DNA of 64,000 bases, taken from IMG/VR virus record IMGVR_UViG_3300013094_000040, positions 3,338 to 67,337 of that record, one strand, 5' to 3'. Positions 1,136 through 31,700 of this stretch are shown piece by piece (position 1 is the first letter of the stretch; each line of letters opens with the position of its first letter). Source of the DNA: a virus. Under the pieces are notes generated by a model, which was not told where the DNA came from, searched no databases, and worked only from the letters and a program-made list of their open reading frames with translations. The translations under genes were made by a program, and so were the position numbers.

Positions 1136-1143
1136 TATAAATA
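1136..1143 (+). promoter_or_regulatory. T4-type late promoter TATAAATA driving the gp26-like gene
   Basis: Exact T4 gp55 consensus 35 nt upstream of ATG 1178; a gp55 homolog is encoded in the window. Confidence 0.7.
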
Positions 1144-1160
1144 TCTAAGTATATCAATTA

Positions 1161-1168
1161 TATTTATA
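1161..1168 (-). promoter_or_regulatory. T4-type late promoter TATAAATA driving the tape-measure-like gene
   Basis: TATTTATA on the + strand is TATAAATA on the - strand, 33 nt upstream of the ATG at 1128. Confidence 0.7.
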
Positions 1169-2041: not shown

Positions 2042-2256
2042 TTCTCGGCAACGAAGATATCATAACGTTGCTTAACCGATACGATAGAGAATCAAAAGCC
2101 TTACGCGAAGAATTATTAAGAATGTGTTGGTATATGCGTGGTGGCATTACCTATGATGAGGCATTTATGCTCACTCAGGAAGAACGCGAACTTATTAACA
2201 AGATCATTAAAGAAAATATGGAAACAACTAAAAAGTCAGGATTGCCATTCTTTTAA
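2038..2256 (+). CDS. Small baseplate hub assembly protein, T4 gp51-like (possibly expressed as a -1 frameshift extension of the upstream gene)
   Basis: 72-aa helical ORF (WYMRGGITYDEAFMLTQEERELI) directly after the gp26-like gene; TTG start without a clear RBS. Confidence 0.6.
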   Translation: MILGNEDIITLLNRYDRESKALREELLRMCWYMRGGITYDEAFMLTQEERELINKIIKENMETTKKSGLPFF

Positions 2257-2272
2257 GATCTCTAACGAGATC

Positions 2273-2304
2273 TGTTGTTTCGCTTTGCTCACAACATTTT
2301 TTTT
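2273..2304 (+). terminator. Probable intrinsic terminator of the gp26/gp51 unit
   Basis: TGTTGT...ACAACA stem followed by T8; preceded by a perfect hairpin AGATCTC-TAAC-GAGATCT (2256-2273). Confidence 0.45.
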
Positions 2305-2309
2305 ATTAT

Positions 2310-2697
2310 TGATGTTTTTCAGTATCATCCAGATTTATCAGTCACACTTTGCCCGCTAAAGGGGCAAAATGAAATTGTAGCATCATCCGAGTAGCACAAT
2401 CACTTAGCGTTAGAACTACATACTTACGTATACACAGGCGGTTGTCCGGTACCTGCTCGTTCTGTCTTTATACAACGGCGGTTTGTAAACATACGCTAAC
2501 ACATTTACAAACGTGTGAGATTTCCTCACTCTTTTAGCCTTTTCCTAATACTTTTCAAACAATCAAACCGCTTATAGGCGTATGCGATCCGGGTCCTGTT
2601 AAGGATACTGATTGAGTGCTCTCGGGCGCAGAGAGGCTTCCGTCCGGGTATAGTTAAATCCCTTGTCTTAGACACATGATGTTGACCTGTGCGAGTC
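2310..2697 (-). ncRNA. Putative large structured non-coding RNA (unassigned family)
   Basis: No credible ORF. At least nine helices, several with G-U pairs valid only on the minus strand, a GUAA tetraloop, and a 7-bp loop-to-distal complement (2493-2499 with 2404-2410). Boundaries approximate. Confidence 0.65.
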
Positions 2698-3132
2698 TTA
2701 ACTGCCTAATTTATTTTTTATATGGGAGCCATGGACACGGACTTGAATATGTCCGTTATAATAATCATCTGATTCTAAGACTTGGTGTCTAAATTGTTCT
2801 CTTGCTTCTATGTAACTACATTCTGCTTTGCTTTTGCAATAATATAGTATTTCTCTTGTAAAATTGTCAATGCCTAATTCAGCCACATCTTTGTTTAATT
2901 CAATATTTGAGCCATAATATGTTTGCCAATCCGAGTCTATCTTACCCTTAATTTTCTTGCGTTTCTTCTTGCCATTCTTTAGTTTAACCATACGATACGT
3001 AGTTTTGCTAAACTTTGCTAATTTTTTGCCAATATATTTCCTGCCAGACAGTTTATTAGTGATCAAATAAACAAATCCGACACAATCTTCGGGTAAAATT
3101 TCTACAATAGAGTTTTCGAATAACCATGACAT
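2698..3132 (-). CDS. GIY-YIG endonuclease, T4 endonuclease II (DenA)-like
   Basis: GFVYLITN...RKYIGKK GIY-YIG motif, DWQTYYGS, FTREIL, E...YYN; 144 aa. Confidence 0.8.
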   Translation of the reverse strand: MSWLFENSIVEILPEDCVGFVYLITNKLSGRKYIGKKLAKFSKTTYRMVKLKNGKKKRKKIKGKIDSDWQTYYGSNIELNKDVAELGIDNFTREILYYCKSKAECSYIEAREQFRHQVLESDDYYNGHIQVRVHGSHIKNKLGS

Positions 3133-3138
3133 GCATTG

Positions 3139-3145
3139 TAGTTAT
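3139..3145 (-). promoter_or_regulatory. Late-promoter variant ATAACTA, 6 nt upstream of the nuclease ATG
   Basis: Matches the ATAA(A/G)TA motif seen before structural genes; no SD sequence between motif and ATG. Confidence 0.45.
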
Positions 3146-3179
3146 CTCTCTGTAACATGATAGTAATATAGTCTTGAAA

Positions 3180-4949
3180 TTACGCAATATCTACATCTGT
3201 ATTGTAACTTGTGTACCCGTTTTCCTTAACAACGTGCAGAGTATTGTTTACACGCCCTGCAAGTTCGTCTTTGTGCGACACTAACCAAATTGACTTGTTA
3301 GCTTCGCGACTCATCTTTTTCAGGATAGCCAGGCTGTTTTCCACGCCCGAGCTATCCATACCGCTGTCAACTAACTCGTCAATAAACAACAAGTTAATAG
3401 GCTGATATAAACTTTCCCAAACATCTCGGAACGCCCAGCTCAAGGATAAGATCAAGCGGTTACGTTCTCCCCGTGATAGGTTGTCAAAGTCTAAATCTCT
3501 TCCCAATTCCGTAATGCTTACGCTAAGATCATTGTTGAACTTAACGGTGTGTGGTAAGCCAATACGATCAAGGTACTGTCCCAAGCGGGCATTTAAGTAA
3601 CTTAAATTCTGGTCAATAATACGTTTACGAATAAACGAATCTTTGTTTGTTAATAGTTTAAGCAAAAATTCCTGATGATCTTTTACATTTGTTAGATCAT
3701 TGATTATATCAAATTTAATTTCTTCTACGCCTTGCGTTTGCATTTCTGCAATTTGTTCTGTGTACGGATCTTCTTCGGCCTGCTTGGTAGCTAATTGTGT
3801 AATCAAACTATCAACTGTGGCTTGATGATGAATAGCATCTGATTCCCGATCGTAAAATGTTTCAGGACGTGGACCTAAACGGCCCAGCCCGTCGTGAGCC
3901 GACTGTAGTTCAACCAGGGTGGCAGCATGTGCTTCCGCTGACTCAGTTGCTCCTGCCAAATCTCTCTGCTTCTGTCCCAATACTTGTTGGTGCTTCTCGT
4001 CATGGAACTCTTGACCGCAGGTATGACACGTATGATTTTCCAACGAAACAAGTTCTGCTGAGATCTTAGTAATAGTTTTTTCTTCGCGGGCGACATCCAT
4101 TTTGGATCTCGCAATCGCCGACGATAGTTCATTGATATCCTTGCGAGTTTGATCCCACGTTTTAAACGCTTGGTGTGCCTGAATCTCGGACGCGATGTCG
4201 ATCTTCTGTAGCTCTTCAAGCGCCGTTTGTAATTTCTGTACCTCTTCTGCATGTTTAGTCACCCACAATGTTTGTCGACGCTTTAACGATTCTATTTGTT
4301 CTTCAATACGTTTGTTAGCATCGCCTACTGCTTTAATGCGAGCTTCTTCGGCAGTAATAGCATCTTTGGTAGCCTTATTAGCTTCTTTTAATCTGTCAGC
4401 CTTTTCAGACAACATAGTGATACCAAGCAACTGTTCAATAATAGTACGTTGATCATTGGCTTTAAGTGCTAAAAATGGTTCAGTATAGGTATTAAGTGCC
4501 ACAATATGTTTGAACATGTCGTGACTCATACCTAACATACGTTCTATCTCTGCTTGTGTTTCTCTTGAATCGCCTTGTGCATCATCGGTAATTTCTCGTT
4601 CAACGCTACCCACAAAGAACTTCATTGTGTTGGGTTTACGTCCACGTTCGATTCGATAGCTTTCGCCATCCTTTTCAAAATCAATAGTAACCATCATATT
4701 CTTTTGGTTAGTTTTATTGATTAAATTATCTTTCTTGATGTTGGTAAGTGCGTTGCCATATAAGGCATAACTGAGTGCATTGATAATAGTGGTTTTACCC
4801 GTACCATTACGTGCTCCTGTGTCGTCGCCACCTAAATCTAAGTTTTCGCCTAAGACCAAAGTGAGATCTTGTCGATCAAAGTTTACTGCCTGAGTGGTAT
4901 TACCCACGCTCATAAAATTCTTAACGGTTAGATCTTTTATTTTAAACAT
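3180..4949 (-). CDS. gp46: Recombination endonuclease ATPase subunit (Rad50/SbcC family)
   Basis: KNFMSVG, Walker A NGTGKTT, coiled coil with CHTC zinc hook, signature LSRGE, Walker B LFIDE, SH motif. Confidence 0.95.
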   Translation of the reverse strand: MFKIKDLTVKNFMSVGNTTQAVNFDRQDLTLVLGENLDLGGDDTGARNGTGKTTIINALSYALYGNALTNIKKDNLINKTNQKNMMVTIDFEKDGESYRIERGRKPNTMKFFVGSVEREITDDAQGDSRETQAEIERMLGMSHDMFKHIVALNTYTEPFLALKANDQRTIIEQLLGITMLSEKADRLKEANKATKDAITAEEARIKAVGDANKRIEEQIESLKRRQTLWVTKHAEEVQKLQTALEELQKIDIASEIQAHQAFKTWDQTRKDINELSSAIARSKMDVAREEKTITKISAELVSLENHTCHTCGQEFHDEKHQQVLGQKQRDLAGATESAEAHAATLVELQSAHDGLGRLGPRPETFYDRESDAIHHQATVDSLITQLATKQAEEDPYTEQIAEMQTQGVEEIKFDIINDLTNVKDHQEFLLKLLTNKDSFIRKRIIDQNLSYLNARLGQYLDRIGLPHTVKFNNDLSVSITELGRDLDFDNLSRGERNRLILSLSWAFRDVWESLYQPINLLFIDELVDSGMDSSGVENSLAILKKMSREANKSIWLVSHKDELAGRVNNTLHVVKENGYTSYNTDVDIA

Positions 4950-4986: not shown

Positions 4987-6417
4987 TTAGTTTTTTCTAA
5001 AATCTTGTCTTAGCGATTCGTGGTCAAGTTTGAATTCTTCGTATTTTTGTTTATTTAGATAAGCAACCTTATCAAATTGTAGTCGGCTGAACTTTTCTGA
5101 TAACTTTGAATTAACGTCATCCAAATTAATCTGTCCTTGCCAAACCGCAATATAAATCTTTTGATATGCCACATCTACTACCACGTCAGCAGAAACACCA
5201 TTTTGATTTACAATATCAGCAAGCTCACTGATTTGGAAATCTGTTTCGTTAATACGATAAAAGTTCGAACGCCCAAGGTGTGTGTAACCATCTACACTAT
5301 TGCCGGCAAACAAATCTTCCAATTGAATAGTCTGCGGATAAAGAGCTGGACAACCCACGGATAATTTTCCATCAACAATGTTGACCTTAAAAAATTGGTC
5401 AACAGTATTGCCCATATAGTTTATTTGATAATTGTCTGTTGTGGTTGTTGCGTCTATAGTTCTTAATAGGATAGGCCCACAGGTCTCGTTGCCACCAAAC
5501 ATACTACGTAGACGTGCAACTCGAACCTTTTGTATTTTTTCCACATAGTCTGGAGTGATATAGTACCCACCAACAATAATATCAATGCTGTGTTCAAATT
5601 GCATTTCGTTTTTAATCATGTAATCTAACATGTTGTCCAACATAGATTTCCAGGATAACATCAATCGAGAAATTTTGTTTGCAATGACGAAATTGACAAA
5701 CTCCTCAACATCATCGGTAAACTGACTGACAAATTGATAATGTTCGTCTGCACCAGCAAAACCCGGTAAAAAATTAGCCATTAATACAGCTGCATGATGC
5801 ATATTGCGTACATGAGCAATGCGTTGATTTTTTAAATCAAGTACAACGGCATTACGTTTACCAATTCTATAGAGTTGTTGGTGTGTGTATGTTAATAATT
5901 TTGGCTCACCGGTAGTACCGCTGGAAGTAGTCCATAATAAAACATCATCCGGCGCAGAGAAAATCTTAGTAGATACGTTATTAAAAGTTGCTGGATTATC
6001 AATAGTATACTCGTGAAAAATATCTTCCTGCATGGTTTTTGTGCTGTAACGCCGGCACATGTTTACCAGACTGGGAGTATTTTTAGTTACATTATCGTAA
6101 TAGATTAAATCAACAAACCCCCAGGATTTTACCAAAGTTTCCATTTTGCTTGAATAGCCATCTTCTCGTGTTGGCTTCTCGGGAAAAATTAAAATTTTTA
6201 ATCCCAACTCTGCTGCAGCAAAAAATAAAGAAGTATAGGTAAAACTAACAGATTGATCGACCAGGCCAATACTCATGCCGGGTCGCATATGATATTTTTC
6301 AAATAGTATAATTTTCCAAAAGTTGATATTGTCGTTTAACTCTTGGTTAGTAAATGTATTTTTTTGATCGTGATAAGATAAATTCTGCGTGACGTAATCA
6401 CGACTGATGACTTCCAT
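4987..6417 (-). CDS. ANL-superfamily adenylating enzyme (acyl-CoA synthetase/AMP-binding-like)
   Basis: P-loop TTSSGTTGEPK, FGGNETCG, HLGRS...RIN motifs. Confidence 0.75.
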   Translation of the reverse strand: MEVISRDYVTQNLSYHDQKNTFTNQELNDNINFWKIILFEKYHMRPGMSIGLVDQSVSFTYTSLFFAAAELGLKILIFPEKPTREDGYSSKMETLVKSWGFVDLIYYDNVTKNTPSLVNMCRRYSTKTMQEDIFHEYTIDNPATFNNVSTKIFSAPDDVLLWTTSSGTTGEPKLLTYTHQQLYRIGKRNAVVLDLKNQRIAHVRNMHHAAVLMANFLPGFAGADEHYQFVSQFTDDVEEFVNFVIANKISRLMLSWKSMLDNMLDYMIKNEMQFEHSIDIIVGGYYITPDYVEKIQKVRVARLRSMFGGNETCGPILLRTIDATTTTDNYQINYMGNTVDQFFKVNIVDGKLSVGCPALYPQTIQLEDLFAGNSVDGYTHLGRSNFYRINETDFQISELADIVNQNGVSADVVVDVAYQKIYIAVWQGQINLDDVNSKLSEKFSRLQFDKVAYLNKQKYEEFKLDHESLRQDFRKN

Positions 6418-7436
6418 TATAAACTCCTATAGATGTCTAACAATAAATTTTTATTAAATTGTTCGCTTTCGATACTGCTTAACTGCCCGTAGACAATTTG
6501 ATCAACTGATTCAAATTCGATATTGCCCTGTATTTCATAATCAGTTAAGTCGGTAACCTTGGCAGGGATAAGCGTAATTTCACGTAAGTTGTAAGTGTCG
6601 ATAAATGTTTCTTTGATAAAAGTAGCTTCTTCGTAGCTAATATCAATGTCTAAATTAACACGCACATGCATATTTGGTTTTAGCATGGCCTCTGTGTGTT
6701 TGAGCACATCCGACAAATTAAACACACGATACATGGGCTGATCAGGCCAGGCATAGTATACAGGGTCTTTGTCCCATTCTAATATCATAAGGCCTCTGTC
6801 ATCGTCGCCGGCATCGGCATAGTTATGTGGAAAACAGTTGCCCAAATAAGTCACATTGCCGCGAGTCTGTCGCTTATGGAAATGTCCGGAAAACACATGC
6901 TCAAATCCGGCTAAGTCGTGCTTTGGATCCACTTCGCCGTGGTCGGGCATAGCTACCATAGCATTCATCAAGTATCCAGGCAGTTCAAAGTGCCCAAACA
7001 TATACTTGCCTTTGAGCTTCTTTAATCGTTTGAAGTCGTCGCCCACAAGCCACGGAGCAATAGTGACGTCGCCGATAGTAGTCCAATCGTTACAAATATG
7101 GATGTTAGTAAGGTGTTTGGCCCACTCCACACTTTGTACATCACGCTTATCGCGATAATACAAATCATGGTTGCCTGGAATAAAGTATGTTTGATCAAAG
7201 TTAGCATTCAGGTGCTCCAGTGCTTGTAGACTGTATTGTAGCGTAAGGATGTTAATGCTGGCACGATTATTATGCCAGTCACCCAAAAACAAACAGGTGT
7301 CGCATCCTTCCTCTCGGGCTTTAGCAGTTGCCCACTTTACAAAATTTAAACAGTCTTCGTTGTGTAGCGTACTGTTCGACTTCAATCCAAAATGGATGTC
7401 CGTAAACACAGCCGCCTTCTTAAAAAGGTTAGTCAT
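6417..7436 (-). CDS. gp47: Recombination endonuclease nuclease subunit (Mre11/SbcD family)
   Basis: Metallophosphoesterase motifs TDIHFG, LGDW, PGNHD, GHFE, SGHFH; lies between gp55 and gp46 as in T4. Confidence 0.95.
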   Translation of the reverse strand: MTNLFKKAAVFTDIHFGLKSNSTLHNEDCLNFVKWATAKAREEGCDTCLFLGDWHNNRASINILTLQYSLQALEHLNANFDQTYFIPGNHDLYYRDKRDVQSVEWAKHLTNIHICNDWTTIGDVTIAPWLVGDDFKRLKKLKGKYMFGHFELPGYLMNAMVAMPDHGEVDPKHDLAGFEHVFSGHFHKRQTRGNVTYLGNCFPHNYADAGDDDRGLMILEWDKDPVYYAWPDQPMYRVFNLSDVLKHTEAMLKPNMHVRVNLDIDISYEEATFIKETFIDTYNLREITLIPAKVTDLTDYEIQGNIEFESVDQIVYGQLSSIESEQFNKNLLLDIYRSL

Positions 7437-7477: not shown

Positions 7478-8374
7478 TTATTCGTCCGAGTCGTGACTTG
7501 CACCACCACCACTACCCCATTGTCCACCACCGGAGCTCATGCCCTGGCGTGTATAGCTTGGCATCAAGCCATTCTGTTCCATAATGTCATCGCGTAGGTT
7601 TTGGTTACGCTTTTCAATATTTAGAACACGAGTAAATGAGTTTGTAATTGCTGCTGTATAATAAGCAAATGGATTTTGTGACTTAGCTTCGTCAAACTGT
7701 AGACCAATTTGACTTAACTGTAAGAGTGCTTGACTACGCATTTCGTCATTGTAGGTATAACCACGCCAGTTGCTACGTGTAGCATAGCGTTCACATAATT
7801 TAATAAACATATGAGCCAGTTTAGGAGTCATCTTGCCGTGATCTTTGCTAAACTTGCCGGTCTTTAATCCACCGGCCCAATGACTTTTACCCACAAGTTC
7901 GGGTTCGCCTTGGTCGTTTAATTTATAGTGTTGGAATGGAGGAAAGTTTACCTTGACGTATTTGGTATGAGTAGTGTCTAATTCGTCGTATTCAGTTAAT
8001 AACGGATCCTCGTCATCTTCAATTTCCAAGGCATTCATACGTGCTTTTTTAGTTTTAGCATCGTCAACTGGAATATGATCCCAAGTCATTACTCGGAATA
8101 CTACATCTGTGTCAGGGACATCTTTGAGTTTAACTTCAAATTCGTCTAATTTACGCTTAACACCATCTTTGGTAGCTTCTTCGTGTGCTAATTTAGCCAA
8201 TCGTTCAGCACGGTTTTTACGTGCCTCTAACGTGTTCTTTTTGTTGATTTTTTCTACCGATGGTAAAATAATATCATAATCCGCATACTCTTGTTTGGTA
8301 TAGCTACAGTAGGTAGTTTTACTTTTGTGTATTTCTTTGAGTATGTCTTTGTTGTTTAAATAATTGTGTTTCAT
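7478..8374 (-). CDS. gp55: Late-transcription sigma factor
   Basis: HNYLNNKD N-terminus and RSNWRGYTYNDEM...FDEAKSQNPFAYYTAAITNSFTRVLNIEK match the gp55 family; start reassigned to MKHNYL (GGAGA RBS). Confidence 0.9.
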   Translation of the reverse strand: MKHNYLNNKDILKEIHKSKTTYCSYTKQEYADYDIILPSVEKINKKNTLEARKNRAERLAKLAHEEATKDGVKRKLDEFEVKLKDVPDTDVVFRVMTWDHIPVDDAKTKKARMNALEIEDDEDPLLTEYDELDTTHTKYVKVNFPPFQHYKLNDQGEPELVGKSHWAGGLKTGKFSKDHGKMTPKLAHMFIKLCERYATRSNWRGYTYNDEMRSQALLQLSQIGLQFDEAKSQNPFAYYTAAITNSFTRVLNIEKRNQNLRDDIMEQNGLMPSYTRQGMSSGGGQWGSGGGASHDSDE

Positions 8375-8403
8375 TTTAATGATGTCTCCCGACAAGTTAG
8401 TGC

Positions 8404-8432
8404 ATACTAACATATTACATATCCTGTGTCAA
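8404..8432 (-). promoter_or_regulatory. Sigma70-type promoter of gp55 (TTGACA-17-TAGTAT)
   Basis: Perfect -35 and 17-nt spacer upstream of gp55. Confidence 0.65.
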
Positions 8433-8490: not shown

Positions 8491-9363
8491 ATGGGTCTTT
8501 TTGACGATACACCTTCTTTTGATACTTCGGCATTTAGTTCCGGGTTTGACAATGTAGTAAACTCTGTTAGTAACGGGTCGGCTGCTGACTTCAATAACGT
8601 AACTAATTCTATTACCGGGGCAATCAACGTCAGTGCAAATCGACTGTTAAGTGCTGGATTAAATTTTGGTGGAGGCTCAACTGGCCTGGGCTTGCTAAAT
8701 TCAACTCCCACTATAAACATCAATGGTGGCCAAGCAAAAGATTGGCGTGTTAGACTAAGCCTTCCGGTTAATTTTCCAGCTATTATGAATGGACAAAATT
8801 TAGCACCACTTAGCCGAACAGGCAACGGTGTGGTTTTTCCATACACTCCTACTGTTGCAGTAACACACAATGCTCGCTATCAAGAACAATCGCTCACACA
8901 TAGTAATTATAAGAATTATTTCTACGAAGGCTCGGATGTGGCAGAAATAAATATTTCTGGCGAATTTACTGTGCAGAACATTGCCGAAGGCCAATACTTA
9001 ATGGCGGCAATTTACTTCTTTAGAACCTGTACCAAGATGTTTTTTGGTGCAGATCAATTGGCAGGAAATCCTCCACCAATATTATTCTTAGACGGTTACG
9101 GAGATTTTTATTTCCCCCACGTTAGTTGCATAGTTAAATCGTTTACACATAATATGCCGGCCGACGTTGACTATTTAGAAATACCTACAAACACTTTAGG
9201 TAACTACGTATCGAGATTACCAACTACAAGTACCATTAGTGTTACTGTACAACCTGTTTACAGTCGTCAAAATGTTTACAATAGATTTAATTTAAATCAG
9301 TTTGCATCAGGACAACTAATAGGACAAAGTACAGGCGGCACAGATATAGCAGGATTCATTTAA
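8491..9363 (+). CDS. Baseplate/tail-tube initiator protein (gp48/gp54-like)
   Basis: DWRVRL, VFPYTPTV, INISGEFT, PPPILFLDGYG pattern typical of tube-fold initiators; first gene of the baseplate operon. Confidence 0.6.
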   Translation: MGLFDDTPSFDTSAFSSGFDNVVNSVSNGSAADFNNVTNSITGAINVSANRLLSAGLNFGGGSTGLGLLNSTPTININGGQAKDWRVRLSLPVNFPAIMNGQNLAPLSRTGNGVVFPYTPTVAVTHNARYQEQSLTHSNYKNYFYEGSDVAEINISGEFTVQNIAEGQYLMAAIYFFRTCTKMFFGADQLAGNPPPILFLDGYGDFYFPHVSCIVKSFTHNMPADVDYLEIPTNTLGNYVSRLPTTSTISVTVQPVYSRQNVYNRFNLNQFASGQLIGQSTGGTDIAGFI

Positions 9364-9671
9364 TGGCTTCAACATCAAATTACAGTCGCAGTAGTCCTTA
9401 TTATAGCACACCTTCTTTTGGGAAGTTTTTAGATATATTAGACTACAGACCAATTGATAAGCAACCCGATGACGTTGTTTATGTAATTAATAATACCTAT
9501 CAATATAGACCTGATTTATTAGCCTACGACTTATATGGAGATAGTTCCTTGTGGTGGGTGTTTCGTGCTCGTAATCCCAACGCCATTGAGGATCCATTGT
9601 TAGATTTTCGTGCAGGCGTAACAATTTACATACCTAATAAGAATACCTTAACCGCCAGCCTGGGAGTTTAA
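9363..9671 (+). CDS. Baseplate wedge protein, gp53/LysM-like
   Basis: YRPDLLAYDLYGDSSLWWVF...N...GVTIYIP motif. Confidence 0.8.
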   Translation: MASTSNYSRSSPYYSTPSFGKFLDILDYRPIDKQPDDVVYVINNTYQYRPDLLAYDLYGDSSLWWVFRARNPNAIEDPLLDFRAGVTIYIPNKNTLTASLGV

Positions 9672-19774: not shown

Positions 19775-22700
19775 ATGGCAGCTATAAAAACTATAAATTT
19801 TTTACCTGAAGTATTTAGAACTAATACTAATCAGAAATTTCTAAATGCTACATTGGACCAGTTGGTTACTCCACCGGACCTGAGAAAAGTTAATGCCTAT
19901 ATAGGTCGTAAGTTTGCGCCTACATTTAAAAGCACAGACAACTATCAACCTGAGCCAACTACTCTAAGACAAAATTATCAATTAGAACCAAGCGTAGTTG
20001 TTAAAGATAAAACAACTGGTGATATTAATTTCTTTAGTAGCTATGTTGATTTAATAAATCAACTTAAACACGACGGTGCTTACACAGAAAATCAAAACAG
20101 ATTATTCAAAAGCGAAACATACAGTTTTGATGGCCTATTTGATTTTGACAAGTTTGTAAACTTTAATCAATACTACTGGTTGCCTACTGGGCCCGACCCA
20201 GTGCAAGTGTTTGGATCGGGTGTTGAAGCACAAGCAACATATACAGTAACACGTGACCCAAGTACAGGCAGTTATCATTTTACCGGATCCGGTGATGCTC
20301 CAAACCCAATATTACGTTTGGCACGCGGTGGTACATATAAATTTATAGTTAATCAGCCCGGCTACCCATTTTGGATTCAAAGTAGTGTTGGAACTTCGGG
20401 TTTAAAAACAGGACAAAGTAATTTATCAAGCCGTGATGTATTGGGCGTTGATAACAATGGCGCAGAAGTTGGCACTATTACATTTAATGTTCCACAGACA
20501 ACCGCGCAAGATTACTATGTCTATATGCCATTGGTAGCCACAGTCGATCTGGCTACGGATATTAGCTATACAAATATTCAGAATCATTTATTAAGCACAG
20601 TTGTACAAAATTATAAAGGCATTGACAATGTTATAAGTCAGCTGTCAAATAAAACATTGATATTTGTAAACAAAGATATTGATGACGCATTGTGGACTGC
20701 CGAAGGATTGCTTGACCGTTATGGCTACGATGTCAGTGGCGGATTTGATGGTGGCGGAATGGTACCAGCTGAGCAACGTCGCGGAGTATGGCGTTTACAG
20801 TTAATACCAATTGACGGCGATTACATTGTTAATTTAGTTCCCGACACAGCAGTTGGTGTTAACCAAAGAGTCTTTGTTGCCGGCGGACAAACACATGCCG
20901 AAGAAACTTATTATCTAAATGCAGATTTTGGATACTATACATTAGTACCAAATATTACAGCATCCTTGCCTACTATATTTTATCAAGATGGTGTGGGCAG
21001 TAAATTTGTAGGCGAAATTAATTTAGTTGATATCAATGATAATACTCTTAATGTTGACAAAGATATTATTGGCGCTAAAAATTATACAAGTCCCAATGGC
21101 GTTTCATTTACCAATGGATTAAAGATTACATTTGATTCCAGTGCCAGTCCAATTGGTTATGCTGGCAATACCTATTATGTTGAAGGTGTCGGTACAGCTA
21201 TTAAATTATTAAATGTTACTGATTTTATAACTCCTGAAACTTACGCAGACAATGGAATCACTACTCCTGACTACATTACTGTTAATCGTGCCAGCCAGGA
21301 TTTAAATCCTTGGTCTCGTAGCAATCGTTGGTTCCACATAGATGTTATTAAAGCTGTTGCTGCTTATAATAATGCTCCACCTACACTGGAGCAGAGATAT
21401 CGTGCCAGCCGTGCTATTATTGAGTTTGAAGCTGACCTACAGTTATACAATTTTGGTCGCCAGGCAAAAACTCCGATTGATATTTTTGATAACACCATTA
21501 CTGATGCTCGTAACTCTGTTGAACTTAATGATTACTTTGTTCTTGATGGGGTAGTTTTAAAAGATGGTATGCGTGTGGTATTTGCCAACGACTTTGATCC
21601 TACAGTTAGAGGACAAATTTTCAATGTTAATTTATCCAGCATCAATGAACAAACTTTGGTTACATTGAGTCCTGCTGAAGATTCTTATGTTGCACCAAAC
21701 AGTAATTTAATTGTATTACAGGGCAATACACATAGAGGTAAACAGTATTGGTATGATGGCTCTAATTGGATTGAAGGACAACAAAAAGTATCAGTAAATC
21801 AAACACCAATGTTTGATGTTGTTGACGGTAACGGGATCAGTCTTGGTGATTCTACAGCATACCCTGGTTCAACATTTGCTACTACTAAAAATAATCTTGG
21901 CACAGCCATTGGTGGGACACCAATCTTTTCTTATAAAGTTGGCACAGGAACTCCAGACCAAATTTTAGGCTTTCCTTTAAGCTACAGAACATTTAATCAA
22001 GTTGGTGATATACAATTTGTTAACAACTTTGACAGCGATAAATTTAGTTATACCGGTGTTGTTGATCAAAATATTAACACCGCTGGAACTTTGCAGCAGA
22101 ACAACAGCCTTACTGCTTATAACCTACGCAACGCCTGGCTAACTGCAACAGAAACCAGCAAGCAGTATCAGGTAATCAACGGCATATACGATGGTACAAA
22201 TCCATACTTCCGAGTGGACGTGGTTCCTTATTCGGCTACCACAGTACCTTATATTAAAGTTTATAAAAACTTTGCAGAGTTACCTCCAAGCAAATATCAA
22301 TTAGGTAATGCCGGTGTTAATTATTACGTTCATGTAAAAGATTCTACAATGGTTGCAGGCGACCAAATTGACATTGCAATCTATGGTAATAATGTTAGTG
22401 CATTGGGCTATTACCAAGTGCCTACAAACTTAGATTTTAACAGTGAAAATGCTAACTTTGATACGTTAACTTTAGGACAACTACGTAACCACTTGGTATC
22501 GTTAGTGTCAAACAGTACACAGGTAACAGGTTCAGGTCTTGGCGAAAACAACCTAAGAGACGTACCTATTAAAGCTCAAGGCGGTAATATTTTACAAAAT
22601 GCCAGCCCAGTATTGTACAGTGAGTTATTCTTAGTTGACACAGATGCTAATTTTATAAAAGGTCTGGAATTAGCAAGACACAACTATGGCAGAATTAAAA

Positions 22701-25700
22701 ATAAAATTTTAGAAACTGCAACAAACTTAAAATCAATAGTGTCAGCTGACATTCCTGGAACATTAGATAAAATTTTACAAGGTATTAATAGCGTAAAAAA
22801 TAATACGTTCCCGTGGTATTATTCTGACATGGTGCCCTATGGTCCATTGAAGAATGTGATTACATATACCGTAGTAAATGCTGAACAGTCAGACTACGAA
22901 ATAACAAACATTTTCAGCGATACTCAATTAAGCAATCGTGCTGTATTAGTATACATTAATGATATACAACAAACTCTTGGCACAGATTATCAATTTGATA
23001 CTACTCGTGCTGGTATTACATTCTTAAAAACATTAAACTATGGTGATGTAATTACCATTAACGAATATAATAATACCGATGGCAATTATATTCCAGAGAC
23101 TCCAACTAAATTAGGTTTATATCCTAAATTTAAACCTGGTATCCTAATAGACAATACCTATCGCGAACCGGTAACAGTAATTCAAGGACACGACGGATCA
23201 ATTACTCCGTCCTTTGGGGACTTCAGAGATCAATTGCTTTTAGAATTTGAATTACGCATTTACAATAACATTAAAGTTGATCATGTTCGCAACACTGAGT
23301 TTTTATATAACTATTTGCCGGGTAAGTTTAGACGTTCTGACTACTCAAACAGAGAGTTTACTCAACTATTAACAAGAAGCTTCTTGCAATGGGCAGGTAG
23401 TAATAGAGTTGACTTTACAACTAATAGCTACTTTGAATCCTCGGATCCCTTTACCTGGAATTACAGTAAATTTGTTGATACTGTAAACGGGGAAGCGTTA
23501 CCAGGAACATGGCGAGCCATTTTTAATTATTTCTACGATACCGATCGTCCACATACACATCCGTGGGAAATGTTGGGAATAAGCGAAGAACCATCATGGT
23601 GGCAAGGACGTTATGGCCCTGCTCCATATACTGGCGGTAACCTTGTATTATGGAATGACTTAGCATTAGGTTATGTATGGAACAACGGAAGTCCATATAC
23701 AGATCCAAGATTTGTCAGACCAAATCTATTGAACATTATACCAGTAGATGAAAATGGCATCTTACGTTCGCCAACTTCATATATTGTTAAGAGTTTCAAC
23801 AGTAATCAGGCCAATGGTAGTTATAATGTAGGACAACAAGGTCCAGTTGAAACAGCATGGCGTCGTAGCAGTGACTATCCTTATGCTGTACAAGAAGCCC
23901 TGGCATTGGCAGCACCAGCATACTACTTTGGTAGTTTAATGGATGTTACTCGTTACTATAAAAATTCTGATCTTAATCAATTTGTATTAGCTGATACACT
24001 ACAGCGTATCACTCCTTCGGCTGTGAGAATTAACGGCCAGCAAATTGACAATTCAACTTCATTTTACAGAGTAGCCGGTTATATTAACTGGATATCAGAC
24101 TATCTACGAAGTATTGGTATTGATCCAGTGACAAAAATTACTGGATACCTAAACAATGTTTCTGTACAATTAGGCTATAAGATGGCCGGCTACAGCGATG
24201 CTTCTTTCTTAGAAGTATTGGCAGAACAAGCAAGTCCAACCAGTACAACTAATAGTATTGTTGTTCCTAACGAAAACTATAAAATACAACTTTATAAATC
24301 AACTCCAGTTCAGACTATAACTTATAGTGCTGTTATTGTTGAAAAGAGTGAAAACGGATATACCGTAAGTGGATACGATACCAGCAATCCATATTTTACT
24401 ATTATTCCAAGTTTGGCAAATAATAATGCCTATACTATAACAGCATTAAATGATGTTGGTGTCATTTACAATGACTATCAAAAATATAAAGTTACTGTAC
24501 CCTACGGATTTGAATTTAATAATAAACAACAGGTAGTTGATTTCTTAGTCAGCTACGAGCGTTTCTTGCGCGGTAGTGGTGTAGCATTCACTGACTTTGA
24601 TTCAGATTTAAATCTACAGAGAGATTTTAAGTTAAGTGCTCAAGAGTTCTTAACCTGGAGTCAACAAGGCTGGACTGTTGGTAGCGTATTAGTATTAAGT
24701 CCAATTTTATCACACTTAGTGGTTAATGTTCCATCCGGAGTAGTTGATCAAGTTGAAAATACTCCATTGGGAAGTCGTATTCTCGATACCGGTTATAATT
24801 TTATCAAATACAACGCCTTCTCGGTTACCAGAACGGATAATAATTTTACAGTAACCGCAATTAACAATCAAACTATTGCCTTGGCTGTATTAGACGTAGT
24901 CGAATATGAACACGTATTAATTTTTGATAACATCACAGCATTTAATGACGTTATCTATGTACCAACATTGGGCAACAGACAATACCGTTTAAAACTTGTT
25001 GGACAAAAAACTGGCTCATGGACCGGTGCACTAAATCCACCTGGATTTATCTACAATAGTCCAAAGGTAGATGCATGGCAACCTGGCAAAGACTATGCCT
25101 TGGGTTCATTGGTAACTTATAAGAATTCTTATTATACCGCTACGCAGAGCTTAACAGCAACAACTACATTCAATCCATCAGAGTGGCAGAATATCAGTAG
25201 CAATCAATTGCACACTGGTCTATTGCCAAACTTTAGCTATAACTCAGGCAAGGCACAAAGATTTAATAGTCTAACAGATCCTGAGTTGCAAGGCGACTTT
25301 TCAAGATTTGTGGGAACAGAAATTGGCTTCCGTCCACGCCAATACTTAACAAACTTTGGTATCGATATTCCAACACAGGCACAGTTTTATCAAGGTTATA
25401 TCAGACAAAAGGGTACAATGAACTCGGTTACAGCCTTTACTGCTGCGGGTTTCAATGGTGTCAATAGTACAATTAATCTATACGAAGAATGGGCTATGCG
25501 TGTTGGCGAGTATGGCGCATTACACAATAATCAGTTTGTCGAATTAGAATTAGTCGAAGGCACATTCAATGGCGATCCGGTAACATTTACGCTACTGCCA
25601 AACAATGTAGTTAATGTAGATCACACTATTAGTGTGTATCCTGCTAATTTATATCTAACCAGCGATACTTATAGCCCGTCAATTTTCCAAAATAGAGATG

Positions 25701-28700
25701 AGTCAAGTTTTTATGAAAACGATATATTAACAGCAGGCTATGTTAAAAAAGACGACATCGATATTCAGATATTTGACATGGCCAGCTACGGCGAACTTAA
25801 TCAACATTTGAATCAAATTTCTGTTGGTAAGAAGATTTGGGCTGCAAAAGATAACACTACTACAAGTTGGAATGTATACCGTGTTACAGAAACCAATTTA
25901 TCAGTAGTTAGTTTTGCCTACTCTGTAGATGTTATGGCCCTGGTAACTACTTTAACCCCGCATTCATTTGTCTACGGTGATATAATTGTTGTTAGAGGAT
26001 TTGATGATCGCATCAACGGATTCTATCAAGTATATAACGTAGTTGACGCATATAGCTTTACAGTTGTAGTTCCAGCAACAATGTTGGATACTGTAAAATC
26101 TGCAGGTGCTGTACTTGGCTTAGGCCCAGTTTATAAATTGGTAAGTCTACGTCTTAAGAATTCAACAGACTTAACAGCTCTTACTCCTCCTAATGAGTGG
26201 ATCGACGGGGATAAACTTTGGTCCGACTATGATCAAAATACCGGTGGTTGGGTAGTTTACAATAAATCAACTCCGTGGACCACTGCCAACACCGATGTGT
26301 TGAATAATATTAGTATGGAGTTAGATGCTAACAGCTATGTAACTAATTCTGGATTTGGTACTGTAACCGCAATCAATCCTACTGCTACATTTGCTGCTGC
26401 CAGCATGCCAACATTAAACAATGGCAACGTAATAGTATTTGTCTCTAATGTTGCTAACAACAATACATTTACCATGGTTGGTAATCTTGGACAACGCTCG
26501 GGTGGTACACTATTTGGCTCAAGTCTATCAGCAAGTAATAATTTATTATATATTGGTCATCCAGGCGATGGTGCAACACAGGCTGGCCGAGTACATATTC
26601 ACAAGTTTAATGGTGTATCATCATTCCCTTGGTCGCAGACACTAACAAGCCCAACAACTGCCAATGGAGACAACTATGGTTATAGTGTTTCGGCAAGTGA
26701 CGACGGAACTTGGTTGTATGTTGGTGCGCCCGGTGTTGGTAATGTCTACGTTTATCACAGCAATACAACAGGTTACTATAGTTTAGCCAATACTATTGTT
26801 GGTAACAATTATGTCAGCACCGGTAATGCCATTGCTTCACAATTTGGTTATACTGTAAACACAACCAGTGATGGCGCTCAAACTATTGTGGGTGCTCCAT
26901 ATGAGCGTGTCAATGGTGTTGCTGCTGCCGGTGCAGTTTATGTTTACAATCGTAGTCAAGAAAGTTTTGTAGCCAACGGTGGCAATGTTTATTATCCACA
27001 ATTCCCTATTTCTACAAGTACAGTTAAAGTTACTGTCAATGGTACTGTACAAAATAGTGGCTTCACTGCTTATACAGGTAATGTATCGTTTACTCAGCCT
27101 CCTGTAGTTGGAACAATTATCACAGTCGACACTAATGAGATACAGCTATTAGAAAAACTAACCAGTCCTGCACCAACATCGGGCGGCGCATTTGGTATAG
27201 TATCGCACATTGCTGGCAATGATGCAGACATTTACGTTGCCAGTCCCGGTTATAGTGAACCAGGTTACCACAGTGGCATTGTCTACAGATTTGTAAACTC
27301 AGGCGCTAACTATGGAACCATTACCAGCACAGTAGCCGATGCTACTGTTGTTTCTGGCAACAATTTCTATATCAATGGCTGCTTGGTACAAGTTTCTGGA
27401 ACCACATTGGCCAATGTGGCAACCGCAATCAATTCTGCTAATATTGCCGGTGTTAGTGCTGTTGCACAAGACTATGGTTATCTAACTATCAACAGCACAG
27501 TCACAACACCATTTGAAAAGTTAATAATTGCACCCGGCACTGGCACAATATTAACAGACATGGGACTCAGTACATTTGCTAATGTACAAGCATTAAAACA
27601 CCCAGGTAAAGCAGATGTTAATGCCTTTGGTAGTCAAATCACTTCTAATAAAGATTCTACATCGTTGGTAATTAGCGCCAGCCGCGGCGCATCGTTTAAC
27701 ATGATGTCATTTGACAAAATTACAAACGAAACATATTTTGACACTGGATCAACTGCTTTCCACGATGGTATTGAAGGATCGGGTGTTGTGTTTATCTATG
27801 GATTGGTTGAAGGTTCATTAAGTGTATCTACACCAGATCAGTACGTATTGGTACAACAATTACAAAATACATCATTATCAAGCAACGACCAATTTGGCAC
27901 AAGTTTAGCATTGGCTGGTAATGTACTGTTGGTTGGTGCTCCCGGTGACAGTAATCACGTTGGTATAGATCCATTGTCTGAACGTCAGATAAACATTCCA
28001 AGTGCTGGTACATACTACACATACAATAACTTTACTGGAAACATTGGTTGGGATATTATTAACAGTCAACAACCTAAAGTAGATCTTGATAGCATTACAA
28101 GAATGTATATCTACAATAAATCTACGCAGACTCTGTTGACTAACTTTGATTATATTGATCCAGCCAAGGGCAAAGTGTTAGGTGCTGCTCAAGAAGATTT
28201 AGACTACATCACAGCCTATGATCCAGCAATATATAATGCTGCTGTTGGTGTTGGCGAAAACGAACCAAATCTTTCTGTAAACAATGATTATCATTGGGGT
28301 GCAGAACAGGTAACCAAAACCTGGTGGGATATTGGCAAAGTTCGTTACTACGACTATGAACAAGGTAATTTAACATATCGTTCAAATAACTGGGGATCAA
28401 CTTTCCCTGGCAGTAAGATACAGGTTGCTGAATGGGTAATGAGTGCAGTTCCTCCAAGCCAATACAAAGGCAGTGGAACACCATTGTACCCAGACAATAG
28501 TGCTTATGTAATTGAAAGTTATGTAGATCCTGTTTCAAAACTATTACGCAGTCGTTACTATTATTGGGTAATTAACAAAGCCACAAGAGAAATAGATTCT
28601 AATCATATCAATAGTATTAACACAATACAGGATATCATTGCCAACCCGGCAGCGCAGGCTATTCCTTATGCAGCTGTATTGAGAGATGATACTATTAGTC

Positions 28701-31700
28701 TTTATAATGTGTCTGACTATTTGATTGGTTCTGGAAATACTATAGTATTCCACGCAGACCACGATAGTTTAAAAAATACAAATATTATTCATAATGAATA
28801 TCAATTGATTCAAGAAGGAAGAAGCGGTAGCTTTATTCCTGATCGCATTATTAAGAAAATGATTGACAGTTTGTCTGGCACAGACATACTTGGAAATCCT
28901 GTACCAGATGTTTCATTGACTCCGCAGACTAAATTAGGTATAGGCACCAGCCCTAACCAAACAATATTTGTTGATCGTTTAACTGCCTTGGAGAATTTTG
29001 TACAATATGTCAACAACGTATTAATTCAATATCCTATCGTTGAAGAATATAACATCAACGGATTGTACAGTTCAGATCCACAACCAGGCATTGAAAACTA
29101 TGATTACTCTGTTAATAACTATGCAGAATTAACCTATATTGATACTGCTGGTTTATTAGTTGGCTATACTGTATTAGTAAAACAAGATGAAAATAACAAG
29201 GGACTGTGGGCTACATATTCCTGGGCCGGCACAACCTGGACACTGGTTTCTGTACAAAGTTACTATACTCCATTCTACTGGTCGTTTGTAAACTGGTACG
29301 ACACTACATACGACTCAACTGGTAAGGTTACATATCAGGTTGCTACCTATCCAGATTTAGTAACATTATCGCCTGGCATAAATGATACAGCCAAAGTCTT
29401 AAACAGAGGAAATGGTCAATTTTCTATCTATCGTTGGAACGGTTCGGCGTGGAATTTAGTTGGCTTGGAAAACGGTACAATACAATTAAACAGCAATTTG
29501 TATACTACAACTGTTGCCAGCAACGAAATACGTATTATATTCAATGCTATTCAGAATAACATTTTTGTAGATAATTTAAAATCTCACTTTAATGATTTAT
29601 TCTTCTTTATGATTAATTATGTGTTGACTGAACAAAAATCAGTTGACTGGGTATTCAAAACAAGTTTTGTCACAATCTTCCATCAATTGAGAGAGTTAAT
29701 ACAATATCCTTCGTTTATTCAAGATAACCAAACTTATTACGAAAACTATATCAATGAGGTTAAACCTTATAGAACCAGCATTCGTGAATATTTGATTAAC
29801 TATAATGGTACAGACGAGTACTATGGCGACACAACCGACTTTGATATTCCAGCAACATATATTAGTAATGTTAATGCTTATCGTAGTCCAAACGGTACTG
29901 TATCGTCAGATGCCTATGCATTGGCTAATTTACCACAGTACAGCTCGTGGTATAATAATCATGGATATGGCATTGCTTCTGTTAAAGTTTCTAATCCTGG
30001 ATCAGGTTACTACTTGCCGCCAGTTGTTAATGTTATAGGTGGTGGTGGTACTGGCGCGGTTGTTACGGCCGATGTTGACATCACATCAAATACTATTTCT
30101 CGTTTTAATGTAATTAATCCAGGCAGTGGCTATACTTCAACTCCAACTATTTCTATTGTTGGTACAGGAACAGGCGCAGTGGGCTACCCAACATTGATTG
30201 GGCAACATTATGTAGCACGTATTCCAACATTGGATATTACATTAGATAGCAATACTCATGCACGAGCTGGCGATATTATTACGCAACCAGCTACAAGTGC
30301 TGCTGGTGTAGTGTATTCTGCTACTGCCGGCGGTAATGTTTTAACTCTTAAAGATGTTAACTTAATTGATGTTACTGGAACATTTAAGGCCGGTGAATAC
30401 TTGTACTTAAATGCTACTCCATTAAATGTTCGTCCGGGTGTGCCAACAACAACATTAACTGTTAATGGTAATGTTAATCTCAAAGCTGGTGACATTTTGT
30501 TACAGTCGGGGTCTGGTGCACAAGGCGAAGTCTATGCTGATACAACTACCAACACAGTTAAACTTTGGAACGTATCGGGTACGTTCCTAAGCGGACGTTG
30601 GTTAAGTAAAGCTGGTTCTAATATTGCTGTTTACCCAACGTTCTATACAGTAGAGTCTGGCGCAAGTCCGTTTAATCTATACACAACTTTGGTAGATGAA
30701 AGTTATAACAAAATAAGAACTTTTGACACTACAATTAAATTTGACCGTGTTAGCTATAGCAGTAACGTAACTGCTTGGAGTAAAAACGATTCTTATAGTT
30801 TCTTAAGTGACTTTGATCAACCAGGCGACAACTGGGATGAATTACCATTTGACGGAATTATTTCATCCGACTGGGTAAGATACAATGGCAAAGGCTATGA
30901 AGCAGTTGGTGTTGTCTACAGTAGTGCTACCTTAAAACTAAGTGGTAACATTTCGGCCAATATTGGCGATTATGTTACTCAGCTTAATACTGAAGCTAAT
31001 GCACAGATAATTTCTATCAGTAGTAACAATAGCCTTATTACAGTATCTAATGTTACCAGCAACTTTGTAAGACGCAATGGTAATATAGCAATAAATGGTG
31101 TAGTTACAAATGTAAATCCTGTAGCGGTTAATAACATATTTGACTACACACAATTTAGAGCCATTGGCGGAGAAGAGTTTTCTACAGCAGCAGATCGTAT
31201 ATCGGCCAGCTATATTCCAAGCGCCAACATGCCTGGCCTGGATATGAAACAGTTAATGTCTGGAATGACATATCCAGGTGTTCGTGTTGATGGATTAAAA
31301 TACAATGCCACAAGTTCTGTAATTACTTCTAACGTAGTAGCATTCTTTACAACTAATGCTACAATGATAAGTTCAAATATTGCTAAACTTAACTTTACTA
31401 CATTTGGTTTAGAAACTCGTTTACCACTTACTGTAACCAATACGGATACTGACACTACAGCTAATGTGAAAATTTTAAGTATTGCACCAGACAAGATGGT
31501 ATTAAATGGTGTGATGAGTAATATTGCGTTAGGATCAAATGTATCTATTGTTTATTTTGATTCTAATAATCCTATCTACTTAGATACAATTATTCAAAGT
31601 AGCTATTTAGACACAGCATTAGGAACCCGTGCCGAGGATATTAATATCGACGGTGGCGCCTATTACGACATTTATAGTAGCCATGCACCTGAGGAATTAG

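Follow-up and report, generated by a model that had tools for sequence, protein, structure and literature searches.

A predicted structured RNA with twin identical boxes and an exchangeable Polynucleobacter-1 domain behind a nuclease gene of uncultured T4-like phages

Virus record IMGVR_UViG_3300013094_000040 comprises 67,337 bases of a phage genome, with a CheckV completeness of 19%. Positions 3,338 to 67,337 of this record were analyzed here; this stretch of 64,000 nucleotides is referred to as the window, and coordinates are those of the window. Near its start, a row of minus-strand genes ends with the gene of a GIY-YIG nuclease, and 441 bases containing short open reading frames (ORFs) only (2257-2697) separate this gene from the 72-codon orf72, which converges on it from the plus strand. 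The locus raises the question of what these bases encode and whether their product belongs to the nuclease. A first-pass annotation had read them as a large minus-strand RNA of a family that it did not recognize, possibly acting with the nuclease. The present comparison with related loci indicates that positions 2322-2697 of the minus strand encode a stand-alone structured non-coding RNA of approximately 380 nt, whereas an obligate partnership with the nuclease is not supported.

The 5' part of this RNA belongs to a known family. A scan of the whole window against Rfam gave a single match:

2557-2697, minus strand: 5' domain, Rfam RF01718 (Polynucleobacter-1), covariance-model match of 141 nt

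The match begins at the first base past the nuclease stop codon and runs the full length of the model (positions 1-141 of 141), with only one pair marked as non-standard; its score is 80.9 bits, compared with a gathering score of 37 (E = 1.4e-15), and a scan of the whole record returned the identical match. The helices CUCUC/GAGAG and CAAUCAG/UUGAUUG around UCCU/AGGA are those of the Rfam Polynucleobacter-1 consensus. A strong Rfam match had been named beforehand as refuting novelty, and the novelty of the RNA as a whole is refuted for this reason. The 3' part, however, bears out the impression of an unrecognized family: a scan of 2150-3250 at E values of up to 5 gave nothing besides RF01718, so that the 3' ~235 nt (2322-2556) are unmatched. 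The Rfam model thus represents the first 141 nt only, while the viral copies continue beyond its end into a conserved core of ~235 nt. The window RNA is a member of RF01718, and the family model is incomplete for the phage copies.

Polynucleobacter-1 is listed in Table 1 of Weinberg et al. (2010; PMC2864571) as a probable RNA from Burkholderiales and from fresh water and estuary samples with its function left open, and it carries the label 'probably cis-regulatory' in that table. The window copy, in contrast to this label, has nothing downstream on the same strand. In the literature searches the motif was met in this table row only; the supplementary alignment and gene context of the same paper may bear on both the extent of the motif and the cis-regulatory label.

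The relationship of the two parts became clear from related loci. Relatives of the nuclease in viral contigs number at least 524, and the best 80 (73-87% identity) were used. Their loci share the order gp46, nuclease, non-coding stretch and convergent orf72 and baseplate-hub gene, with extra genes sometimes inserted, and blastn among them found the whole non-coding stretch to be conserved at 66-79% identity; blastn of 2200-3200 against 50,697 phage records gave no match. An 18-nt degenerate pattern taken from the most conserved loop gave at least 120 further stretches, and a pattern for the Polynucleobacter-1 domain gave at least 120 more, of which 82 of those listed are new loci. Approached from the nuclease, the core lies downstream in 73 of the 80 loci and the remaining seven have at most 221 nt left. 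Approached from Polynucleobacter-1, it follows directly in 79 of the 82 new loci, and the other three have 84, 45 and 24 nt left; the Rfam motif is therefore the 5' domain of a larger viral RNA. The core is conserved in more than 200 viral contigs, and the RNA is found in every sufficiently long examined locus with the gp46-nuclease-RNA order, in a clade with contigs of up to ~355 kb.

Alignments of these loci (A1 being made from 23 clean intergenic regions) and a covariance model of the core, R1, which was built from nested helices only and leaves the pseudoknots out, were used to describe the structure. The core consists of five helices (H1, H2, S3, S4 and H5) locked by two pseudoknots (PK1 and PK2), with the following elements in 5' to 3' order:

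2530-2556, minus strand: A-rich linker ending in GGCUAAAAGA, the conserved lead-in to the core (alignments A1, A3 and A5; R1 positions 1-14)
2515-2529, minus strand: hairpin H1, GUGAG/CUCAC; six of six pairs with changes on both sides
2480-2513, minus strand: hairpin H2, 12-13 bp; 13 of 13 pairs covary, 96.8% paired
2493-2499, minus strand: 5' strand of PK1, the apical loop UUAGCGU of H2, complementary to ACGCUAA
2472-2476, minus strand: 5' strand of PK2, GUUGU, upstream of S3; pairs with ACAAC at 2441-2445
2459-2462 with 2413-2416, minus strand: S3, GAAC/GUUC, enclosing S4; four of four pairs covary, 98.5% paired
2452-2455 with 2435-2438, minus strand: S4, CAGG/CCUG; two of four pairs covary, 100% paired
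2419-2432, minus strand: GNRA hairpin UAUAC-GUAA-GUAUG, a lineage-specific insert that is variable or absent among relatives
2404-2410, minus strand: 3' strand of PK1, ACGCUAA; six of six pairs covary, 98.3% paired
2380-2403, minus strand: twin motif copy 1, GUGA-N9-ACUC-GGAUGAU-GC; in all sequences examined, the 7-nt box is the same as in copy 2
2345-2371, minus strand: hairpin H5, CAUUUUGCCC/GGGCAAAGUG, between the twin motifs; four of nine pairs covary, 91.3% paired
2322-2345, minus strand: twin motif copy 2, GUGAC-N7-AUCU-GGAUGAU-AC, the last conserved element; the R1 match continues to 2294

All of the helices named in the first-pass annotation were recovered, either in place or displaced by 1-2 nt. 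In many relatives H1 is a 6-bp stem with a GNRA loop, and its pairing amounts to 80% of the cells of alignment A5, in which two length variants are aligned. The 3' strand of PK1 sits 89 nt downstream of the H2 loop, directly before the first GUGA. PK2, the 3' strand of which lies within the nearly invariant 13-nt loop of S4 (UACCGGACAACCG; 2439-2451), is 99.1% paired, and three of its six pairs covary (columns 90/125, UA:63 and CG:34; 91/124, GC:72 and AU:23; 92/123, UA:82, GC:7 and AU:3). A terminal helix between leader and tail was also considered and rejected, since the score with own partners was 5.35 compared with 5.26 for those of other sequences; this test is weak, the RNA start having been located in 21 of 98 sequences.

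Folding energy does not single out this RNA: the minus strand gave z = -1.42 against shuffled sequences (seven of 100 shuffles being as good) and the plus strand z = -0.89, neither of which is significant, and RNAalifold alone recovered just part of the structure. In the mixed alignment A2, a split into two clades swamped an all-against-all covariation scan, which was replaced by tests of the stated structure. In a plain MAFFT alignment of 48 sequences, 94.2% of cells are paired, compared with 78.3% after shuffling (reached in none of 500 trials) and 35-47% with the partners slid, and 31 of 47 pairs have changed on both sides. R1 matches the window once (2294-2542, 180.5 bits), and with 97 distinct sequences aligned to it 94.9% are paired, compared with 77.0% shuffled and 36-46% slid, with 38 of 48 pairs compensatory. 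The nested helices of this alignment lean towards the model, whereas the pseudoknots are independent of it. PK1 could also be examined free of any alignment: among 91 sequences the H2 loop takes at least 13 different forms, and each of these can pair with the downstream partner in its own sequence, with a mean Watson-Crick run of 6.24 compared with 4.60 for the partners of other sequences, many of which share the same loop. This covariation is decisive for a real RNA structure. It is assigned to the minus strand because G-U intermediates are frequent (for example GU:25 in columns 56/74 and UG:27 in columns 265/289) and would be mismatches if read on the plus strand; the original preference for an RNA over DNA palindromes, and the pseudoknot between UUAGCGU and ACGCUAA, have thus held up.

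The RNA is also modular, with an exchangeable 5' domain fused to the conserved core. The 3' two-thirds are conserved in all members of A1, while the 5' third takes at least three unrelated forms: Polynucleobacter-1 in 16, a second form in six (L019, L057, L060, L061, L079 and L038, where L numbers denote loci) and a third in one (L069). The second form occupies the first ~125 nt past the nuclease gene. It gave no Rfam match at gathering score in 20 loci scanned, the scan reporting only L158, which is of the Polynucleobacter-1 type, and a tRNA in L198. Among 151 sampled genomes of one bacterial family, one (~2.0 Mb) carries Polynucleobacter-1 at 96 bits, in a nearly ORF-free stretch of ~950 nt (L407, 1311-2288) between two ORFs that read as putative tyrosine recombinases from their translations. 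No R1 core was found after this bacterial copy, the best score being 5.4 bits with filters off, and the 5' domain is therefore a module that exists also apart from the core. By eye, the following ~300 nt contain an H1-like hairpin and a long H2-like hairpin without an R1 match; they may be a different 3' partner domain.

Other possible occurrences of the core were less convincing. At least 120 stretches of the genome collection matched the 18-nt core pattern; L201-L300 were searched, with L301-L320 left out, and none of the 100 extended beyond 17-23 nt. Such purely local matches are attributed to chance in GC-rich genomes. One of them, L213 from the chromosome of a Cyclobacteriaceae metagenome-assembled genome, holds three copies of the pattern within 3 kb (827-844, 1378-1395 and 3585-3602). 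As an RNA it was rejected, since R1 matched just 17 nt locally at two of these copies (828-844 and 1379-1395), and it is perhaps an unrelated repeat. The viral contig L198 has, at 2061-2149 and 5088-5130 of its minus strand, a tRNA gene and a partial core match limited to S3 and S4 (38 bits, model positions 79-121), which may be a fragment or a distant relative.

The most unusual property of the core is the relation between its twin motifs. The repeated GGAUGAU that had been pointed out at 2382-2388 and 2324-2330 is indeed present and is the end of a bipartite single-stranded repeat, consisting of GUGAC, a spacer of ~7 nt, AYCU and the 7-nt box, with one copy on each side of H5. In 96 of 96 distinct sequences, the box columns 239/307, 240/308, 243/311 and 245/313 are identical between the copies (normalized mutual information 1.0), with paired letters such as GG:58 and AA:38, or UU:68, AA:24 and GG:4. 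Over all RNA types there are 14 box variants, each common to both copies. The relation is one of identity, not complementarity, and it is maintained although the boxes change often, three of their positions doing so independently. Nowhere in the RNA, the 5' domain included, does a third column covary with the box positions in these 96 sequences. Several simple interpretations of the boxes were discarded by eye: the flanking helices required of a k-turn are absent, neither the GGA of a CsrA-type site nor the AUG of a start codon is conserved, and the boxes lie 58 nt apart and out of frame, which argues against coding. Two readings are proposed: each box may be a binding site for one of two copies of the same partner, or the boxes may be in direct contact, with one another or with a symmetric RNA.

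The genes upstream bear on the origin of the transcript. As had been claimed, the nuclease gene is not separated from the RNA by any terminator-like site; in L018 the RNA begins 4 nt past an ORF inserted there. With neither a terminator nor room for a promoter between gene and RNA, co-transcription is probable, and the simplest reading of the sequence is that the RNA is transcribed together with a gp55-gp47-gp46-nuclease unit and possibly then processed. A strong sigma-70-like site inside the nuclease gene was rejected as an internal promoter because it is conserved in only four of 69 distinct sequences. The late promoter ATAACTA of the original proposal was not confirmed: the surrounding 10-mer has seven matches compared with 6.25 expected and is not enriched. 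The sequence TATAAATA, which we take to be the T4 late-promoter consensus, has only two exact copies in the 64 kb, at 1136-1143 (plus strand) and 1161-1168 (minus strand), compared with 8.8 expected by chance. These copies face outwards in the spacer between a minus-strand ORF of 376 aa and the baseplate-hub gene, and they look like candidate divergent late promoters of structural genes.

The nuclease was then compared with its family:

2698-3132, minus strand: stand-alone GIY-YIG nuclease gene, SegE-type catalytic domain only, 144 aa (PF19835, E = 4.5e-32, residues 3-129)

Residues invariant over eight homologues include FVY, Y-x-GKK, R58, R93-E94, E109 and N126, which are, judged by the residue roles in I-TevI, those expected of an active GIY-YIG enzyme. 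The very basic stretch that had been singled out as an insertion is real, but it is a conserved part of the family, six residues longer in this clade, and not a peculiar insertion. A sequence search of solved structures gave one weak match (E = 0.48). The protein falls into PHROG 447, labelled 'NAD synthetase', and the same label is frequent among the 497 family records from cultured T4-like phages, mostly cyanophages; since Pfam firmly places the family in SegE_GIY-YIG, the label is probably a propagated mis-annotation. A group I intron carrying a GIY-YIG ORF was rejected, as there is no Intron_gpI match at E values of up to 5 and gp46 is not split.

What lies upstream of the RNA was classified in 177 informative loci:

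Core-pattern set, 105 informative loci: GIY-YIG gene adjacent in 84, one unknown ORF between in 10, PF24608 gene in 5, no nuclease upstream in 6
Polynucleobacter-1 set, 72 informative loci: GIY-YIG gene adjacent in 66, one unknown ORF between in 4, PF24608 gene in 1, no nuclease upstream in 1

A nuclease gene is thus found directly or one gene upstream of the RNA in 170 of the 177 loci (~96%). In six of them a PD-(D/E)XK nuclease gene (PF24608), annotated in PHROGs as a RusA-like junction resolvase, replaces the GIY-YIG gene and is adjacent to the RNA in five. The intervening ORF of 14 loci has 274-296 aa (for example L018 3429-4253, L099 4369-5259 and L100 8190-9017) and matched no Pfam or PHROG family. 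No empty site, with gp46 followed directly by the RNA, occurs among the 177 loci. In L094, L107 and L178, full-length RNAs (39-53 bits) have no nuclease gene alongside; the genes next upstream are an unknown ORF of 98 aa, one for an Mtd_N-domain protein and one for a PNP_UDP_1-family phosphorylase, and neither a GIY-YIG nor a gp46 homologue was found in these contigs, which are 12-26% complete. In L094, a Rv2179c-like 3'-5' exoribonuclease gene lies ~850 nt downstream of the RNA on the same strand (stored coordinates 8968-9576, minus). The other core-set loci without a nuclease are L119, which is a short section of a contig that had been counted before, and L163 and L198, which have partial matches only. 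Conversely, in four complete genomes of cultured phages with a nuclease homologue (37-50% identity), neither R1 nor RF01718 found a match in any of the four, although the positive controls, the window for R1 and the whole record for RF01718, were both matched; the spacer after the nuclease homologue measures 28-148 nt in these genomes where annotated. The partnership suggested at the outset is therefore not supported as an obligate one: homologous RNAs occur unlinked to the nuclease, which had been named in advance as refuting it, the GIY-YIG gene is exchanged for another nuclease in six loci, and the nuclease does without the RNA in four of four genomes. The adjacency is one inherited gene order, not a repeated independent association. 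The enzyme itself is probably one of phage recombination or repair, neither homing nor RNA-guided, because it is fixed beside gp46/gp47, is without a DNA-binding domain and gives way in some loci to a resolvase-like nuclease.

For the function of the RNA we favour, with confidence somewhat short of even, a scaffold or decoy that acts in trans and displays two identical sites. The RNA would be transcribed as the 3' end of the gp55-gp47-gp46-nuclease unit and perhaps be cut out of the transcript; its rigid core would then act in trans, offering identical boxes to two copies of a partner, which may be a protein in dimeric form or a nucleic-acid sequence present twice, and its place beside the nuclease would reflect inherited gene order rather than functional pairing. 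Several observations weigh against this proposal. The identity of the boxes could stem from direct contact between them or from a structural motif, the terminal position in an operon would also suit a cis-acting 3' element, and no extra copies or complements of the box beyond chance were found in the 64-kb window, which is ~19% of the genome. Furthermore, a functional link to the nuclease within the clade may still exist, because the two lie so close together in 170 of 177 loci. A cis-acting element at the 3' end of the operon, serving in protection from 3' exonucleases, transcription end or translational feedback on the last gene, would account for the RNA starting directly after the stop codon of whichever ORF is upstream and for its being mostly the last element ahead of convergent genes. 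However, the length of ~380 nt, the two pseudoknots, the exchangeable 5' domain and the strictly identical boxes appear to go far beyond the needs of known 3' stabilizers, and in L094, L107 and L178 the RNA sits between same-strand genes of other kinds; the chance of such an element is small but appreciable. Another possibility, which we rate just as low, is that the core represents a new class of large phage RNA with its two boxes in direct contact, either with one another or with a second RNA. The same-position identity (G-G, A-A and U-U), the 14 variants and the lack of a third covarying column fit a parallel homo-base-paired contact. A symmetric RNA assembly or a catalytic site made of two identical strands would likewise yield strict box identity, which a co-evolving protein site would not.

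An RNA that works with the nuclease as a guide, scaffold, inhibitor or antitoxin, with the boxes as sites for a nuclease dimer, is unlikely and ranks below both of these. It would explain the near-constant adjacency, the retention of the RNA where the PF24608 nuclease occupies the GIY-YIG slot, and the conserved basic stretch of an enzyme without a separate nucleic-acid-binding domain. Against it stand the RNAs of L094, L107 and L178, the four genomes that carry the nuclease homologue but neither core nor Polynucleobacter-1, the derivation of all adjacency from one gene order and the standard box variants found behind both nuclease types (L115, L127 and L188). Less probable again is that the conserved RNA gene is a target beside which free-standing endonuclease genes settle as selfish DNA. 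The seg genes of T4 settle next to conserved targets in this way, and free-standing Seg enzymes have a C-terminal DNA-binding domain and a patchy presence among close relatives. The nuclease is of the SegE type, with an N-terminal GIY-YIG domain (PF19835), and its slot is variable, with alternative nucleases and the extra ORF in 14 loci. However, it lacks the C-terminal domain of Seg enzymes (domain at 3-129 of 144 aa) and is not patchy, being always there unless PF24608 replaces it, with no empty site; its identity of 73-87% is above that of many gp46 copies (55-95%), and the resolvase-like annotation of the replacement fits a recombination role beside gp46/gp47. That the double-pseudoknot core is a ribozyme and catalyses self-cleavage or processing, such as freeing itself from the operon transcript, seems improbable to a still greater degree. 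Its size, two pseudoknots and nearly invariant 13-nt loop are within the range of known ribozymes, and processing would be required to create a 5' end directly at a stop codon, but no Rfam ribozyme family was matched at E values of up to 5 and no conserved cleavage-site signature was recognized. Hardly credible is an element acting as DNA, such as a replication origin, with proteins binding to the direct repeats and the RNA fold of secondary importance. The concerted change of the two repeats does recall iterons that co-evolve with their binding protein; however, compensatory change at 38 of 48 pairs, the many G-U intermediates and the covariation of both pseudoknots are predicted only by selection on a single-stranded minus-strand RNA, so that this explanation is largely refuted.

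The genomic setting is that of an uncultured jumbo T4-like phage, since related contigs reach 337-355 kb. The minus-strand row comprises homologues of gp55 (7478-8413) and gp47/SbcD (6417-7436), an AMP-binding enzyme (4987-6417) and a complete gp46/SbcC homologue of 589 aa (3180-4949), the stop codon of which lies 47 nt from the nuclease start. The 476-aa AMP-binding (adenylate-forming) enzyme gene (4987-6417, minus strand) separates the gp47 and gp46 homologues, which in T4 are adjacent. The genes converging on the RNA from the plus strand are the baseplate-hub gene (1178-2041) and orf72 (2038-2256). One further feature lies between the RNA and orf72:

2257-2296: two hairpins in common with the convergent plus-strand orf72, read from sequence

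The second of these is followed by a run of eight T on the plus strand, and a terminator-like site was found on the plus strand at 2256-2273. A tRNA/tmRNA search found none in 2257-2697, and no tRNA anywhere in the window. Farther along the plus strand, an ORF of 4277 codons (19775-32608) is flanked by several ORFs of 976-1129 codons.

As judged from Rfam 15 and the literature searched, the core, the modular build and the identity-coupled twin boxes are undescribed, a statement that the supplementary files of the 2010 paper might qualify. Polynucleobacter-1, an orphan Rfam motif since 2010, is now placed in phages as the first third of a larger RNA. The full architecture, in which a swappable 5' domain precedes five helices, two covarying pseudoknots and twin boxes, is described here, together with a working covariance model. 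Two annotations should be corrected: in these phages Polynucleobacter-1 is probably no 5' regulatory leader, and the neighbouring GIY-YIG family carries the label 'NAD synthetase' in public records. The strong conservation in an uncultured T4-like clade suggests a function of importance for infection. The RNA is big enough for structural work, and the identity-coupled boxes give a sharp hypothesis that is testable by mutation. Should direct box contact prove true, the boxes would be an unusual tertiary or quaternary motif, possibly of a ribozyme or a multimeric particle, with Polynucleobacter-1 as one plug-in domain.

Among known systems, GOLLD and ROOL are large, multi-helix, pseudoknotted, phage-carried RNAs from metagenomes without an established function, and the window RNA resembles them in large size, many helices, pseudoknots and phage carriage. 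It differs in being smaller, in having no Rfam match to them at E values of up to 5 and in not lying beside tRNA genes in the window; no covariance-model match to GOLLD, ROOL, HEARO or self-cleaving classes was found in 2150-3250 at this threshold. In type III toxin-antitoxin systems, tandem ToxI antitoxin repeats lie upstream of a ToxN/AbiQ-family endoribonuclease gene. The repeated RNA motif beside a nuclease gene and the pseudoknots are similar, but such a system was rejected for the window: the RNA is downstream, its two repeats are non-tandem within a larger unique fold and the GIY-YIG enzyme is not of the ToxN type; in addition, RNAs of the window type occur also without a nuclease. The omega RNAs of IscB and TnpB, including HEARO, are likewise structured RNAs of a few hundred nucleotides encoded next to a nuclease gene, as is the window RNA, which differs by the lack of an Rfam match, another nuclease fold, the lack of transposon ends and the occurrence of RNA and nuclease each alone. 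No RNA-guided relatives of the nuclease are known. CsrB-type sponges are structured RNAs that display repeated single-stranded short motifs. The window RNA has only two sites, and boxes such as AGAUGAA, ACAUGAA and ACGAAAU occur, so that GGA is not conserved across boxes and the RNA is not a sponge for CsrA; nevertheless, a short repeated motif, in the window a GGA-containing box, displayed on a structured RNA is the likeness that serves as the working model of its action.

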